NCBI RefSeq assembly: GCF_006345805.1
Contig: NC_043001.1
Span: forward strand, 35,216,001 to 35,280,000
Direction: 5' to 3'
Origin: Octopus sinensis
Lineage: Eukaryota
DNA: 64,000 nt
Part shown: positions 2,371 to 53,505 of the stretch, piece by piece
Layout of the letters: every line of letters begins with the position of its first letter
How positions within the stretch are numbered: position 1 is the stretch's first letter
Translations under genes and position numbers: made by a program
Notes under the pieces: generated by a model
What the model saw: only the letters and a program-made list of their open reading frames with translations
The model's database searches: none
Told to the model about the DNA's origin: nothing

Positions 2371-2704
2371 TGTTGTAGTACTGCATTCATCGATTTTCGC
2401 AAAACTAACAAATCACAAGAAAGCAAACTAAACGCTGAACAATATGGGCAATATATTCATAGACACAAGTTCTTTCACATAATAGATAAAAAATGAAACA
2501 AGACTCTAAAATGTTTTAGAAGCAGGAACTGCATAGGAATGAATAGATTAGGTTAATACAATCATTGTTATACGCATGGGAGAAGTGTAAAGTTCAAATA
2601 TATGCTTATTTCTAGAGTCAACAGGAATAACATCGCGGGACTATTTCTTAAATTCAGTTGTTTGATCAAATGTTTAAATTTGATTATTAGTATATACATA
2701 TATA

Positions 2705-3085
2705 GGCGTAGGGGTGGCTGTGTGGTAAGTAGATTGCTTACGAACTACATGATTCCCGGTTCAGTCTCACTGCGTAGCACCTTGGGCAAGTGTCTTCTAA
2801 TATAGCCTCGGGCCAACTAAAAAGCCTTGTGAGTGGATTTGGCAGACGGAAACTGAAGGAAACCCGTCGTATGTATGTATATATATATATATATGTGGTG
2901 TGTGTGTGTGTGTGTGTGTGTATGTATATGTTTGTGTGTGTCAGTGTTTGTCACCCCAACATTGCTTGACAACCGATGCTGGTGTGTTTACGCCCCGGAA
3001 CTTAGCGGTTCGGCAAATGAGACCGATAGAATAAAGACTAGGCTTACAAAGAATAAGTCCTGGGGTCGATGTAAAAGGGTAAAGA
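2705..3085 (+). mobile_element. tRNA-derived SINE, family A, with internal (TA)/(TG) microsatellite
   Basis: Head GGCGTAGG.GTGGCTGTGTGGTAAG, CORE-like ACCTTGGGCAAGTG. More than 10 related copies in the window. Tail partly deleted. Confidence 0.9.
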
Positions 3086-3316
3086 GATATACTTTTGCAT
3101 ATATATATATATACATGTGTGTGTGTGTGTTTGTGCGTGCGTTCGTGTGTACGTGTGTGTATGAGTGTTTGTGTGTGTATGTATATTCATATATACTTAT
3201 ATTCATGCATATATATATATGTATGAAAAATATATATAAAAAATATAAAATGGGACAAGAACGCAAAACACTCAAATAGACGACACAAAGACGGACGGGT
3301 CATTCGAAGCCTCTAA

Positions 3317-3389
3317 TCTTCAGTCAAGAACCGGATCATCCTTGCAATTTCGGCTGATTAATCTTGAGATCGCTCCGATCCGGCCAGCC
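3317..3389 (-). ncRNA. Candidate permuted (jumbled) hammerhead ribozyme, family 1 copy 1
   Basis: Minus strand reads GCGAU-C-UCAAGA ... CAGCC-GAAA-UUGC ... UCUUGA-CUGAAGA. Stems I and III pair fully. Confidence 0.6.
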
Positions 3390-4101
3390 CCAAGGAAAAT
3401 CTAAGCTACGAGCATTAGATTCTTGGAAAAAGGGATCAATGTATACGAACAAGGACAGAAAAAAAACGGACGATGCCACACGAATATAAATACAAACACA
3501 ATAATAGTAATGACAGGACAAAAACAGCGGGTGTCTTACGACTTTAGACAGTTGAACTTAGCTTAGCTGGCGTATTTAGAAAAAAACGATGTGGTCGCGG
3601 CGGTGCTCAGAAGCCGAAAGGCTAGTTGACCGGCGGTCACGTGAGAGGAGAAGAGAGAGAAAAAAGGGGCAAAGGAATCAAAGAGAGAGAGAGAAAAAGA
3701 GGGACAAAGGCACCAAAGGGGGGGGGGAGAAGAGGGAGAAAGAAGGAATTAAAGAGGGGAGAAGAAAGAGAGCGTGCCAAGGATTGGCTTGACGATAGAA
3801 AGGCAGGGTCAGTGAGGTGCAAAGTGAGAAAGACAGAGAAATGTGAGAGAGTGGGGGAAGAGAGGACCAAAGAATCAGAGGCGAGAAAAGAGAAAGACAG
3901 AGACTAGTGAAGTATAGAGAAAGTGTGTGTAGAAGTCGTACAAATAGTGGGATGCTTACATACATAAGATAACAAGGAGTACGTTACGCCGCAATAATAT
4001 ATGTATAAAAAAATATATATTAAAAAAATATAAAATGGGACAAGAACGCAAAACACGCAAATAGACGACACAAAAACGGACGGGTCATTCGAAGCCTCTA
4101 A

Positions 4102-4174
4102 TCTTCAGTCAAGAACCGGATCATCCTTGCAATTTCGGCTGATTAATCTTGAGATCGCTCCGATCCGGCCAGCC
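4102..4174 (-). ncRNA. Candidate permuted hammerhead ribozyme, family 1 copy 2
   Basis: Same sequence as 3317-3389, in the second direct repeat. Confidence 0.6.
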
Positions 4175-4576
4175 CCAAGGAAAAACTAAGCTACGAGCAT
4201 TAGATTTCTTGGAAAAAGAATCGAATGTATACGAAACAAGGACAGAAAAACGGACGATGCCACACGCGTCACACATACAAACAAAACAATCACAAAAACG
4301 TACATATGCGCACACACAAATGTAGCACGTGCACACGCGCACACATGAGACGTGAAACAAACCAGTGTCCTGTTTGAAAAAGAGATCACACGCTTTCAAT
4401 TTTACATGCTAAAAATCTTGCAAACAAGAATCAATCACTGAAACACTGAATATTCGTGATTCAGAAAAAACACGTATTTCATTGCATTTTATATCGAGAA
4501 CATCATTCGACGTGTCTACTAAAAATATAAATTAAGAACTTAAAATCTCATATGGTAAAAGACTGACTTATATTCA

Positions 4577-4773
4577 TTTACTTGTTTCAGTCATTTGACT
4601 GCGGCCATGCTGGAGCATCGCATTTAGTCGAGCAAATCGACCCCAGGACTTATTCTTTGGAAGCCTAGTATTTATTTTATCGTTCTCTTTTGCCGAACCG
4701 CTAAGTCAACGGGACATAAACACACTAGCATCAGTTGTGAAGCGATGTTGGGGAGACAAACACAGATACACCA

Positions 4774-4817
<44 letters not shown>

Positions 4818-4828
4818 GTATATATATA

Positions 4829-4871
<43 letters not shown>

Positions 4872-5043
4872 TACATATATACGACGGGCTTCTTTCAGTT
4901 TCCGTCTACCAATCCACTCACAAGGCTTTGGTCGGCCCGAGGCTATAGTAGAGAGGCACTTGTCCAAGGTTCCACGCAGTGGGATGTGACCCGGAACCAT
5001 TGGTGGTGGTAAGCAGCTACTTACCACACAGCACTCCTACGCC
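4577..5043 (-). mobile_element. SINE family A, full length
   Basis: Head, CORE-like motif, internal microsatellite and 3' tail CCAGCATGGCCGCAGTCAAATGACTGAAACAAGTAAA. Confidence 0.9.
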
Positions 5044-7021: not shown

Positions 7022-7422
7022 TTTTCTTTTTTTCTTTTATTTGTTTCGAGCAAATCTACCCCAGAGCTTATTCTTTGTAGTACTTATTCTATCGGTCTTA
7101 CTCTACTGCTAGGTTACGGGGACGTAAATACACCACCATCGGTTGTCATGTGATATTGGGGGGACATAAAAAGACAAACAAACATATACACGCACATACA
7201 TACGTACATACATACATACATACATACATACACATATACATACATATATATATATATATACGACGGGCTTCTTCCAGCTTTCGTCTACCAAATCCACTCA
7301 CAAGGCTTTGGTCGGCCTGAGGCTATTGTAGAAGACACTTGACTAAGGCGCCACGCAGTGGGACTGAACCCGGAACCATGTGGTCCGTAAGCAAGCTACC
7401 TACCACACAATCACTGCTGCGT
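7022..7422 (-). mobile_element. SINE family A
   Basis: Homologous to 4577-5043. Confidence 0.85.
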
Positions 7423-8255
7423 CTACATATATATATATACTAAAGGGGAGTCCCACGTGGCGCTAATTATAGGCTGAGGGTTTCTCGGATGAATGCTCTG
7501 CTCTGTTGTACCTCTCTTATCATTTACACTATTCACTGTCCAATGACAACAGACACGAGGTAAGCTGTTGCCGTGTATCATATTTCTTTTCGACTGGGCG
7601 TATAAATTAGTAATATCCCACCACAGAAATATGATATGATAACTGTACAAATAGGACAGCAACTGTCTCATGCGTTATTCAGTTCAGATTCTCATAAATG
7701 AAAATGAGCCACATTGACTTTATTAAAACAAATCACTTACTAATATGTAATTAGGAATAAGCATTCAAAGCATGCAACTCTAATTATCAACCTTGTGTGG
7801 CATATATAAATTGTGAGGCATATAAATAAGATTGATCGAATTTAAATCGACGAAATAATATGCAGAATAAAACAAACCTAGATTTATTTGTAATTAAATT
7901 AATATAAAACAAAAAACCATCGGCACATAAATTAATTGTAATCGGCAAAAATTACAATATTGTCATGTTTTTAATAATTCAATAAAAAATATATTTATTG
8001 ATTTGCGTGTGGCTTTGTACATGAGTTTTATTTTTTTAACATCCGTGCTACTAAACTTACAACCGCGTGATATTATTATTCATAATTACAGGCTACCTGG
8101 CGTATATGTGACTTGAACACAGATAGAAATTAATAAAAGTGACAAGAGCGATGGTGTGTATAATCCCCAAGACCAACAACAAAATTATAAAGGAATAAAC
8201 AATAATAACAACCTCTTCAGTTTTATAAATATAAACATCACTAGAAGAATATTAA

Positions 8256-30021: not shown

Positions 30022-30155
30022 ATACTTGAAATTTACAGAAAAACAAATGACGAAGACAGGTGTATAAACAAGCAGTTGTATTAGTTTGACACTCGGAAAA
30101 TCTTTTACGTTTCGAGCCTACGCTCTTCAGCAGAAAGAAACACGATGAAATAAAC

Positions 30156-33711: not shown

Positions 33712-33935
33712 AAAGTTAATCCGAACATGAAAATACGAGAGAGAAAACACAACAACGCGAGGACGTGGAACAAGTATAGTATTATTGGACGCTCAGGAAA
33801 GGAAAAAGAAACAAGGAGGATGTAACGTTTCGAGCGGAGCTTGTCGTCAGAAACATAGGAAAAGGAAAGATCCAAGGAAGGGAAGACGGAGGAAAAAAAA
33901 ATCGCCAGCGATACACACGCGGTCACATTTTGAAC
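33712..33935 (-). mobile_element. Family E-related element with HHR-like motif
   Basis: Minus strand CUGACGA-C-AAGC-UCC-GCUC-GAAACGU. Homologous to 42972-43181 and flanked by TA repeats. Confidence 0.65.
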
Positions 33936-38699: not shown

Positions 38700-39331
38700 T
38701 AATAAATAAAATATATGCATACATACATATATGTACGTACCTACATCTATATGTATATATACATACATATATATATATGAGTACAGGACACCACAAATAA
38801 AAGTAGAACACAACGAGAAACGAAAACATAAAAACAAACTAGAAAACGGACTTTTTTTAACAACGCCAAAACAGAGTACAAGACAAACAATACAAGGAAT
38901 ATTCCCCTTCATCAGCTGTCCCTGGTTCGACGCAATGCGTGTTTCGAAGGTAAGGACAGAACACGATCCGGCTTTTTTTTCTTTCCTTGTTTTACTCCTC
39001 TGCAAAAGAATTTTATTTAATTCTTTTGCAGGAAGGACTGCTTCGACCGGATCGTGTTCTGTCCTTACCTTCGAAACACGCATTGCGTCGAACCAGGGAC
39101 AGCTGATGAATGGGAATATTCCTTGTATTGTTTGTCTTGTACTCTGTTTTGTCGTTGTTAAAAAAAGTCCGTTTCCTAGTTTGTTTTTATGTTTTCGTTT
39201 ATCGTTGTGTTCTACTTTTTTTGTGGTGTCCTGTACTCATATATATATATATATATATATGCATGTATATATACATATAGATGTAGGTACGTACATATAT
39301 GTATGTATGTATGCATATATTTTATTTATTA
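38700..39331. repeat. Large fold-back inverted repeat (arms of about 270-285 bp) with nested inner hairpin
   Basis: 38700-38971 versus 39047-39331. Inner stem CTGCAAAAGAATT/AATTCTTTTGCAG at 39000-39031. Confidence 0.95.
39032..39113 (+). ncRNA. Candidate permuted (jumbled) hammerhead ribozyme, family 2
   Basis: CGUGU-U-CUGUCC ... CCUUC-GAAA-CACG ... GGACAG-CUGAUGA. A partial mirror copy lies on the minus strand at about 38904-38971. Confidence 0.62.
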
Positions 39332-50348: not shown

Positions 50349-51390
50349 TGATTGATTGATTGATTGATTCTAGTTTCACCTCACGAGCTGAGGCCATGTG
50401 GGGCACCCGCCATTTGGTGTTGCTACATGGTTTTACTTCACGAAACCTTTTTAGCAACTGCCATTTGGTGCATGAGAGAGTTCGATGCAGCTGCCCTCAT
50501 CTGCACCTCCTGCCGTGAAGTTGGTTCATCTGGGATACCTGACAAGAAGAGATCCAGTTTCATTTTAAAGACATCTGCATCCACCCCATGCAGGTCTCTT
50601 AGGTCCTTCGGGAGGATATTGAAGAGCTGTGGGCCTCGGAAGCCCAGGCTATCACAGTATCTTGTCCTACATCTTGATGGCAAATTTGGAGTCCTTGGCA
50701 CCACGCAGTGGCGCCCAGTTCTGGCATTTGTGTAACTCTCGATGCCAAAGTTTGGGACAAGTCCTTCCAGGATCTTCCAGATGTATATTATGGCATATCT
50801 TTTTCGCCTACGCTCCAAGGAATAGAGTTTTATTCTCTTGAGTCTTTCCCAGTAGCTTATATTCTGCACAGAGGCTATCTTCTTCGTGTAGCTACGTTGG
50901 ATCGCCTCAAGTTCTGTGATCAACTTGACACTGGATGGTGACCATAGCTGAGAGCAATAGTCAAAGTGGCTTAGGACAAGTGTCCTCCAGAGGACCATCA
51001 TGGTTTCTTGTTCTCGTGTTCTAAAGGTTCTGAGAATCCATCCGGCCAGTCGTCTACATTTCATTGCCAATTTAGCAACATGTACACGAAAGGTTGCGTC
51101 ATCACTCATGTAAATACCCAGGTCACGCACTGATTGTGCCTCTGGGATTGTAATTCCCCGGGTCCAGTGTATTCATTGGGTATTGCATTTAGTTTTGCAT
51201 GCTGATAGCATAAAGCTTGAAACTTTTCAGCATTGAACTGCATGCTATTCTTTTCAGCCCACTTTATATTTTGTCCAGCTCACATTGCAGGCGTTTAGTG
51301 TCCTCAGGGTTCTGTATTGCCTGTGAAACTTTTGTATCATCTGCATAACTTGTGATCGTGGCTCTCTGCGTGGCTGTGGGCATGTCTGAG
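50349..51390 (-). mobile_element. 5'-truncated CR1/L2-group LINE (RT C-terminal region) with (ATTG)n tail
   Basis: SYADDTKVSQ motif. ORF 50438-51130 reads RDLGIYMS...YCSQLWSP...SLERRR. 3' stem-loop and tetranucleotide tail. Confidence 0.92.
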
Positions 51391-53505
51391 CACAAGGCCA
51401 AAACAAATAGGAGCAAGATTCCAAGAGACAGGAAGATCATCATGAGACGACGGACGGAGGTTGCAATCGTCTCAACCAACATCCCAAAAGTAGCGAAACG
51501 TCCCGCCTAAAAACAACACTGATGGAGATCGAAAAAAGACTGCAACAATCCTATGTGAGGGAGAAAGCAGACAAAGAAGCCTGGGTTAGAAAAAACATTA
51601 AATCAAACCTAAAGGCCTTCTTTCATTACGCGAAAGAAACAGTCTCAGTGCACTACAAGATAGGACCCCTCCTCCAAAAGGATGGCTCCCTCACAGACAG
51701 TCCAACTAAGAACAGTGAGATGCTAAATGACCAGTTCAAAAGGGTCTTTACTACCCCATTGGAACACAGACAAACGAACGAACCAGTGGACTTCTTTGCC
51801 GCTTCACCTATAACCAGCGAGGCGGTTACAATAGAATGTATTGACATTAGCGAAGATGTCCTACTAGCCATAGATGAAGTGGACACAAACTCAACTGCTT
51901 GTCCAGATGGTTTCCCAGCAATCCTCCTCAAAGCGTGTAAGCATGCTCTGGCAAAACCCCTCAAGATTCTCTTCCAGAGCTTTCTTGCGAATGGCAAACT
52001 GCCAAGCAAGCTGAAGGAGGGAATAATATGCTCAATACATAAAGGGGGAAGTAGAGCAGATGCCAAAAACTATAGGCCTAGCTCTCTGACTTCACACATC
52101 AGCAAAGTCATGGAACGGATAGTCAGAAAGAAACTAATCGCATTCCTTGAGGAAAATAACTTGCTGACCATGGTTTTCGACCAGGTAGGAGCTGCCTGAC
52201 CCAGCTCTTACAACATTATGACTGGGTGTTGAGGCAGTTACTCCACAAATCAAATGTGGACGTAATATACCTTGATTTTGCAAAAGCTTTTCACAAGGTG
52301 GATCATGGTATGATATGCCACAAACTGCGTGACCTCGGCATAGCTGGAAAACTTGGAGTGTGGTTACATGACTTCCTGAAAGATAGGAGTCAGGCAGTAG
52401 TGGTTAATGGAACCGCCTCTATGAACACACAAATAGTGAGCGGTGTTCCACAGGGCACTGTCTTGGGACCACTGCTTTTTATAGTGGCCCTCTCAGATAT
52501 GCCCTCAAATGCCCGGATAGCCACTCTGGCAAGCTATGCAGACGATACGAAAGTCTCGCAGAAAATACAGAACCCCAGCGATGTTGCACACCTGCAGCAG
52601 GAGTTGGACTCAATCTACAGATGGGCTGAGGATAATAATATGCAGTTTAATGCTGAAAAATCCCAGGCCCTGCGCCACCAGCATCCAAAACTGAATATTA
52701 AACTTACAGGATACATCGGTCCACAGGGAGCCTAAGTCTGTGAGGGACCTGGGTATCGACATGAGTGATGATACCTCTTTCCAAGTGCATATTACCAGGA
52801 TGGCGACAAATTGCAGACGACTGGTTGGATGGATCCTAAGAACATTCAGAACCAGAGATAAGGAAACCATGATGGTCCTCTGGCGGACATTCGTCCTCAG
52901 CCACCTGGATTACTGCTCACAGCTATGGTCACCCACCAGTGTAAAATTAACAGCGGACCTTGAAGCAATCCAGAGAAGATTCACAAAGAAGATCCTCTCT
53001 AGGGAACAGCTCAGCTACTGGGAAAGGTTGAAACCGCTAAGAGCCTACTCCCTAGAGAGAAGACGGGAGAGGTATGCAGTAATATATGCCTGGAAGATCC
53101 TGGAAGGAATTGTGTCAAATTTTGGCATTGTAAGCTACACCAATGCTAGAACGGGTCGACACTGCATAGTGCCAAAGATCCCAGCGATGCCATCACGCTT
53201 CAGGACCAGCTTCTGCAACAGCCTGGATTTCAAGGGCCCACAGCTTTTTAATATTCTCCCAAAGAGTCTGGGGAACTTGCACAAAGTAGATGTAGCAGTT
53301 TTTAAATCAAAGCTGGACATCTTCCTGTCGAGAGTCCCAGATGAACCTACCTCACGGCAAGAGGTGCAAATGAGAGTAGCTATGTCAAACTCCATTCTTC
53401 ACCAAGTGCCACATATTAGAGGAGCTTCTTCGTAATAACAGTGTAGCACAAAACGGCGGTGCATCAGCATGGCCGCAGCTCTAAGCTGAAACAAGCAAAA
53501 AAAGA
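51391..53505 (+). mobile_element. 5'-truncated, frameshifted CR1/L2-group LINE ORF2 (reverse transcriptase pseudogene)
   Basis: ORFs 51522-52199, 52226-52735 and 52740-53435 carry KNYRP.SLTS, YLDFAKAF.KVDH, GVPQGTVLGPLLF and YADDTK. 3' UTR ends at about 53505. Confidence 0.95.

Follow-up and report, generated by a model that had tools for sequence, protein, structure and literature searches.

A predicted hammerhead ribozyme with an opened core in tandem repeats of the Octopus sinensis genome

Results

The window analysed here is a 64,000-nt stretch of Octopus sinensis DNA (GCF_006345805.1, contig NC_043001.1, positions 35,216,001 to 35,280,000 of the forward strand), and all positions below are counted from its first letter. 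On its minus strand, homology delimits an insertion at 3215..4290 that consists of one 785-nt monomer, approximately 290 nt from the unit before it (1.37 units together) and a TA-rich tail. An abundant short interspersed repeat flanks the insertion on both sides (2691-3070, 4636-5000 and 7233-7437). The monomer contains a pyrimidine-rich non-coding spacer (3506..3996, minus strand), and no ORF of at least 120 aa was found in the 785-nt unit. A 212-nt repeat with 94% identity occurs twice in the insertion, 785 nt apart, and its upstream copy A (4086..4227) and downstream copy B (3301..3441), both on the minus strand, hold the parts of a hammerhead ribozyme with identical cores.

An earlier note on this DNA had reported hammerhead strands in a reversed, non-circularly permuted order, and we find that order in both copies at the same minus-strand positions: cleavage site, then GAAA, then CUGANGA. 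In copy A the stem III 3' strand (4158-4154) is followed by C17 (4153), the stem I 3' strand (4152-4147), CAGCC (4141-4137), GAAA (4136-4133), the stem I 5' strand (4114-4109) and CUGAAGA (4108-4102); the counterparts in copy B are 3373-3369, 3368, 3367-3362, 3356-3352, 3351-3348, 3329-3324 and 3323-3317. Stems I and III measure 6 and 5 bp in both copies, as the note had described, and we agree with its predicted cuts after 3368 and 4153. It had placed the motif at 3317..4174; the motif is there, but the fold extends beyond these limits, to 3301-3441 and 4086-4227. Likewise, it had seen stem I, a candidate stem II, stem III and helix b but missed two further helices, y and z, and the link to Naiad elements described below.

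The complete fold of copy A has six helices, for which pairing, covariation, recurrence across families and folding all provide evidence. From its 5' end on the minus strand, it begins with the 5' strand of helix y (4214..4227), which pairs with 4099-4086 at 12 of 14 positions, and continues with hairpin z (4175..4212), which abuts G10.1 on the 5' side. The stem II 5' strand (4169..4174, with G10.1 at 4174 and its partner at 4142-4137) and the helix b 5' strand (4162..4168, partner 4122-4116, with double-sided changes in 3/7 pairs) come next. Block S, comprising the stem III 3' strand, C17 and the stem I 3' strand, occupies 4147..4158, and block G, comprising the stem II 3' strand, GAAA and the stem III 5' strand, occupies 4129..4142. 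The stem I 5' strand and CUGAAGA (4102..4114) end at A9 (4102), and the 3' strand of helix y (4086..4099) begins two nt past it. Copy B has the same fold, with G10.1 at 3389 and A9 at 3317.

A descriptor scan of the window returned four matches with the order cleavage site, GAAA, CUGANGA, namely copies A and B and an inverted pair at 38886-39132, and none of the four has a stem II after the core. The inverted pair belongs to a second family, unrelated in sequence but built on this architecture: its full copy lies at 38990..39125 (plus strand) and the 5'-truncated partner at approximately 38886-38970; a first look gave 2852 candidates of this family genome-wide. The Rfam search of the window yielded no match at gathering score.

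The note had left the stem II partner ambiguous between a strand upstream of the core and sequence after CUGAAGA, and comparison of copies settles it in favour of the former: of 70 cells, 66 are paired when the upstream strand is used, against three for the strand that follows the core and 50 for a shifted downstream GGCUU. The last figure bears on the possibility that this is an ordinary type SGC hammerhead with block C intact, given that GGCU, five nt past A9, is able to pair with AGCC in the window copies and could form a stem II beyond a bulge. We consider this very unlikely, because the downstream pairs trail the upstream ones and are lost in three copies that keep the upstream strand, because GGCU falls within a 15-bp helix y in the subfamilies represented by L283 and L264, and because a contiguous partner is absent in every other family. 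With the stem II 5' strand located upstream of the core, the backbone has to exit the core between A9 and G10.1. Comparison of families gives the architecture 5'-y'-[hairpin z]-II(5')-b-III'-H-I'-II(3')-GAAA-III-b'-I-CUGANGA-y-3', which, as judged from sequence, amounts to the SGC connectivity with an opening at the A9/G10.1 step.

The hammerhead core nucleotides of CUGANGA, GAAA and NUH are all present with N7 free, stems I and III flank the cut with an A15.1-U16.1 pair and show double-sided changes, and stem II starts with G10.1-C11.1 by way of the upstream strand. No stem II lies 0-2 nt after A9, where a hammerhead would have it, the canonical stem II being 0 bp in both window copies. The order of blocks is S, G, C rather than the circular C, G, S without core pseudoknots of types I, II and III.

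The two window copies belong to a family (family 1) with approximately ten thousand copies in the genome. Its core pattern has 10,324 exact matches in the 2.72-Gb genome, whereas the reversed pattern has eight. Freeing G5 raises the number to 10,534 (control 51), meaning that non-G5 adds 210, and a pattern with non-G at position 8, which fixes one extra base, has 238 matches versus 10,324; with the 10,324 copies as the reference, G5 and G8 are approximately 98% fixed. A hand count of the first 100 among the matches listed gives A at N7 in 61, U in 20 and G in 19. Hence, subfamilies have altered N7 but not G5 or G8, although fixed core bases can instead reflect descent from few master copies.

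We aligned 14 family-1 copies from several subfamilies over 51 pairs, leaving out truncated copies and four more rows; ten of the 14 rows came from searches that required the core or near-identity to it. Of the 712 cells, 90.7% pair. The earlier note had put the fold up for a covariation check on genomic copies, and 11 of the 51 pairs change on both sides (three in helix b, two each in y, III and I, and one each in II and z). None of 500 shuffles matched this result and slid controls paired in 25-50%, but the shuffles ignore relatedness, and the comparison across families described below therefore carries more weight. Within family 1, stem II is nearly invariant, with its one double change and a first pair that is broken in 3/14 copies. 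There are 74 G-U cells versus 29 A-C cells, which favours the minus strand as the folding strand. In a small sample of three unselected copies, the core has 2/33 mismatches compared with 53/426 overall. The common variants at 3371, 3377 and 3381 are all CpG-type transitions and for that reason do not count towards support; only some of the subfamilies compensate the change at 3381, which is left unpaired in 4/14.

All six helices recur in 12 representatives of six sequence-unrelated families of the genome. Families 1 and 2 were taken from the window, a 1-Mb sample spread evenly over the genome supplied families 3 and 5, a filter that demanded an upstream stem II supplied family 4 and a published Naiad motif supplied family 6, and two more variants came from flanks. 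The canonical stem II is 0 bp in 12/12, and the upstream stem II of 5-6 bp, built from four different strand sequences, has a G-C first pair in every representative. Helix b spans 4-9 bp, z 4-13 bp and y 4-15 bp, and the linker from H17 to G12 measures 13-17 nt. Shuffles of the upstream sequence reached the observed score in 0-1 of 150 cases. H17 is C, A or U and never G, a condition that the scan itself demanded. In the evenly spaced 1 Mb, two matches combined an upstream stem II with a helix b of at least 5 bp, compared with none in each of five shuffles; the SGC order alone gave three matches.

With 40 occurrences of CUGANGA in the window, a chance array of short motifs within a repeat might be suspected, but it has negligible probability, being excluded by the recurrence in unrelated families and also by the shuffles, the ratio of forward to reversed core matches and the covariation. 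A different concern is assembly in trans, in which at least two RNA copies would together form a type I hammerhead of the conventional kind, as is reported for the minimal, dimeric ones of Penelope-like elements, for which dimer cleavage has been published. The copies are indeed in tandem and the motif contains short palindromes (GAUUAAUC, CCGG and GAUC). No stem II strand follows A9 in any family, however, and it follows that no assembly of copies can put one there; every helix also closes within one copy through short, conserved linkers such as that from H17 to G12, and the palindromes are not common to the families. We regard assembly in trans as highly improbable, and the six-helix fold within one copy as almost certainly real.

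Unconstrained folding of copy A recovers y, z and II in the minimum-energy structure and y, z, b and III in the centroid. The two window copies do not outperform shuffles in folding (z-scores -0.9 and -0.7), whereas L283, L264, family 2 and family 3 do (z-scores -3.2 to -4.8), and sister subfamilies reach -3.2 to -4.0. In copy A, helix y is interrupted by a 2x2 mismatch, and in copy B small deletions, one of them additional to that mismatch, weaken it; in L283 and L264 it is an uninterrupted 15 bp. Families 3, 4 and 5 have no spare bases at the junction of y, z and II (gaps 0,0,0). Helix y and hairpin z likely close the core gap as a predicted four-way junction. Helix y would stack on z, as would stem II on the A9-G12 pair; the strand that leaves A9 would cross the one that enters G10.1 at a single point, such that A9 and G10.1 would remain adjacent. 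A viroid hammerhead reportedly tolerates an extra base at this step, and an extra A is on record for a viroid hammerhead. Helix b and the short linker from stem I to stem II would take the place of the loop-loop contact. A hairpin enclosing the stem II strand, plausible in three families, was rejected as it is lost in family-2 variants.

The carrier inserts like a Penelope-like element. The spacer served to select 29 loci, of which 27 share a TA-rich 3' end (at or below 3230) and 14 span a head-to-tail junction; their 5' ends are spread over 3692 to 4290, and inverted 5' segments occur at L007, L011, L025, L249 and L253. Thus the 3' end is fixed, the 5' side is truncated or inverted in copies, and partial tandems and TA targets occur as well. 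In a sister subfamily, a trimer is built of 777-nt units that are 98.8% identical, and there is also a dimer (775 nt); no RT was found nearby. Non-coding head-to-tail monomers with one ribozyme each are also what characterizes non-LTR retrozymes, except that the hammerhead here is not of type I. This insertion pattern and the tandem, ORF-less monomer support the Penelope-type, retrozyme-like carrier proposed in the earlier note, but its suggestion of pseudo-LTRs seems not to hold: the repeat looks more like a non-coding monomer than like the LTR-like part of a coding element, and a linked ORF was not found.

The 3' end of the insertion lies approximately 150 nt beyond the predicted cut and not at it, and hence the genomic copies are no direct record of cleavage. 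In the cycle that we propose, a read-through RNA would fold into a ribozyme only after CUGANGA and the y strand, which are transcribed last, have been made, and it would be cut after C4153 and C3368. The two ends of the 785-nt piece so released (predicted cut-to-cut monomer 3368..4152, minus strand) would rebuild the full fold and be ligated into a circle, whose junction would be identical in sequence to that of the tandem. A Penelope-like RT/endonuclease acting in trans would copy the circle from a nicked TA repeat, starting approximately 150 nt past the site, and copying for more than one turn would produce the 1.4-unit and 2.4-unit inserts.

A linked enzyme was sought in several ways. None of the 29 ORFs beside families 1-3 matched RT or GIY-YIG in Pfam, and tblastn around family-1 and sister loci returned only neighbouring, separate elements; an ORF for RT plus GIY-YIG joined to the 3' end, the mark of an autonomous Penelope-like element or Naiad, was not found. 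An abundant Neptune-type family (L187, L188, L196-L210) has open frames of 780-883 aa and is a candidate partner by abundance and shared TA targets only; its 3' regions lack the CUGANGA-plus-GAAA arrangement in 13/13 among those listed. Those regions bear repeated UGAUGACGUC motifs. At one locus (L202) a Neptune-type ORF is followed, 1 kb on, by a family-2-like motif, a linkage that we rejected because five other copies of the ORF family stop where the motif piece starts. Similarly, a Penelope-type ORF behind a family-1 copy (L256/L341) was discarded as it has its own minimal type I-like motif. By eye, a motif like the one ending this ORF in L341 occurs in the window at approximately 30095-30135 and 33815-33855 (minus strand), where CUGANGA is closely followed by GCUCGAAAC, resembling ordinary minimal type I Penelope hammerheads. 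The window also holds two opposed LINE-type reverse transcriptase fragments at 50438-53435 (by eye). Outside the genome, none of the viral contigs among the 120 matches listed fits the descriptor, a Neptune RT search of metagenomes gave no match, and the family-3 pattern gave 59 matches, one of which has the downstream core but no stem I (by eye).

Naiads are described as being without canonical hammerheads by Craig et al. 2021 (PMC8557442), who also flag 'HHR_core' and 'HHR_half_core' cases that they could not fit, two cephalopods included, in the parts of that work available to us. We read by eye, without alignment, the last 330-600 nt of 50 consensus sequences displayed from its supplement, later entries falling outside the count. 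The split-core fold appears in 11 of the 50, with both Octopus entries among them: the ctenophore Bfor (stem I of 2-3 bp only), Chem-3, Amil, Aacu (one mismatch in stem II), Anas, Movir-2, Plae, EuTe (y' and z beyond the displayed text), Obim, Ovul and Esco (weak stem II). Six further entries, all nematode Naiads (Nbra-1, -2 and -3, Hcon, Hpol and Asuum), have a contiguous type CSG hammerhead at the 3' end, and the remaining 33 have neither form in the displayed stretch. Given that these consensus sequences were chosen by protein clade and not by motif, they are the least circular support for the fold, and the split-core and CSG forms may together explain the 'missing' Naiad hammerhead.

A Naiad-type family in the octopus genome also carries the split-core fold. 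In this genome, a motif taken from the Octopus Naiad 3' end in the literature gives 223 exact matches and its control none. No Naiad ORF was found upstream of this family; 2/21 ORFs match RVT_1 but look LINE-type, and the link to a Naiad ORF is therefore not reproduced in this genome. The stems I and II of a family-3 copy (L113:1530-1620) closely resemble those of the acanthocephalan Naiad_Plae ribozyme as displayed (by eye), a likeness that would reflect deep conservation or transfer.

Other motifs occur at Naiad 3' ends. The displayed CGi, Sglo, Olur, Tgra, Pmar, Skow, Pfla-1, Chem-1 and Chem-2 share, by eye, a different conserved motif at the ribozyme position; this bivalve, hemichordate and hydrozoan motif is not a hammerhead and is possibly another self-cleaving RNA. 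In Smim, Ptep, Dst-2 and Dst-4, CUGANGA and GAAA stand at other distances in the displayed text and may represent further permutations. The 3' end of Naiad-1_Movir resembles, by eye, the twister ribozyme consensus.

The position of the insertion 3' end and the Neptune-type 3' regions without the motif also fit an explanation in which a real fold survives as the relic of a hammerhead, slow or inactive, and serves as a 3' recognition signal or scaffold for a Penelope-like RT; no RNA ends appeared in contig-level runs either. Fixed G5 and G8 alongside a free N7, on the other hand, are the pattern expected from catalysis, H17 is never G in the 12 representatives (with the scan condition given above), and other Naiads hold at the same place, in the displayed sequences, the contiguous CSG form that is known to cleave. 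We therefore consider a relic unlikely, and self-cleavage of the family as described, with the core opened between A9 and G10.1 and rejoined by the y/z junction, probable on present sequence evidence; for copy B itself our confidence is somewhat lower.

Discussion

Here, we describe a predicted active hammerhead with a core that opens at the A9/G10.1 step and is likely held together by a four-way junction. We put a probability of roughly 70% on the full reading, that is, a seventh wiring of the hammerhead, present in more than ten thousand copies and ancestral to Naiads from ctenophores to molluscs. If it is correct, the three hammerhead blocks can be interrupted, contrary to what has been assumed, and non-circular permutations move from rare metatranscriptome contigs to high copy number in animal chromosomes. 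Together with the nematode CSG forms, non-circularly permuted hammerheads would then be standard in animal genomes and would be the missing Naiad ribozyme. Searches of animal genomes with type I-III descriptors would have missed such forms, and counts of ribozymes and retrozymes may consequently be far too low. The opened core would also offer a natural entry point for engineered domains.

Among known systems, the non-LTR retrozymes (PMC7229834; bioRxiv 10.64898/2026.07.22.740005) share with the octopus repeat non-coding tandem monomers with one hammerhead each, and circular intermediates and mobilisation by Penelope-like elements have been proposed for them in the text available. RtcB-type ligation has been shown for other retrozymes (Cervera and de la Pena 2020, PMC7229834). 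However, in the species tested there the hammerheads are of type I and the monomers measure 200-400 nt, whereas the octopus repeat is 775-785 nt long, pseudoknotted and core-split. The search of Li et al. 2026 (bioRxiv 10.64898/2026.07.22.740005) is described, in the accessible part, as using type I descriptors only.

Naiads (PMC8557442) share with family 1 the TA-repeat targets, partial tandems and inversions in the sections available, besides the fold in 11/50 3' ends. Family 1 differs in being ORF-less, and the likeness comes from reading by eye with no alignment. Cephalopod Naiads are old remnants according to Craig, whereas family-1 copies are often 98-100% alike.

The closest relatives in structure are the non-circular permutations of Eckert 2023 (PMC10085705), which bear out the earlier note's statement that such forms had been reported. 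In the available text the hammerhead is treated as blocks C, G and S, assumed to be uninterruptible, which gives six orders; cleavage rates of 0.004-0.19 per minute are given for the types SGC (583 sequences) and CSG (2 sequences). The SGC set was found starting from metatranscriptome contigs bearing hairpin ribozymes, and in the text and supplement available 'Octopus' is absent and 'Penelope' is confined to the references. Type SGC (HRIMA-1 and variants) shares with the octopus form the S, G, C order, the conserved core, the short link from stem I to stem II and a helix joining the far ends of these stems, which corresponds to helix b. It differs in that block C, uninterrupted in SGC, is split in the octopus form, with the stem II 5' strand and helix b at the 5' end and y and z added. 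Type CSG shares the circular connectivity and, by eye, the 3' position in the six nematode Naiads, but there CUGANGA stays attached to stem II and the exit lies between stem III and helix b, whereas in the octopus form it lies inside the core.

Known insertions between CUGANGA and its stems never exceed 1-2 nt according to the available text of Eckert (PMC10085705), so the opened core is without tested precedent in the literature searched. Perreault 2011 (PMC3088659) likewise gives, in the part available, core insertions of 1-2 nt only and at other positions, and the accessible part of PMC2777235 adds nothing further on core insertions. In the literature searched, full text outside subscription papers, neither a hammerhead with its core opened at A9/G10.1 nor a non-circular hammerhead in a Penelope-like element is described. 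The S-G-C order is already known (Eckert 2023); the missing stem II after CUGANGA is not covered there in the text available. Because the six published permutations assume stem II directly behind CUGANGA, the split-core form lies outside them. The octopus element is thus predicted to work like a hammerhead, yet stands outside types I-III and SGC as these are defined.
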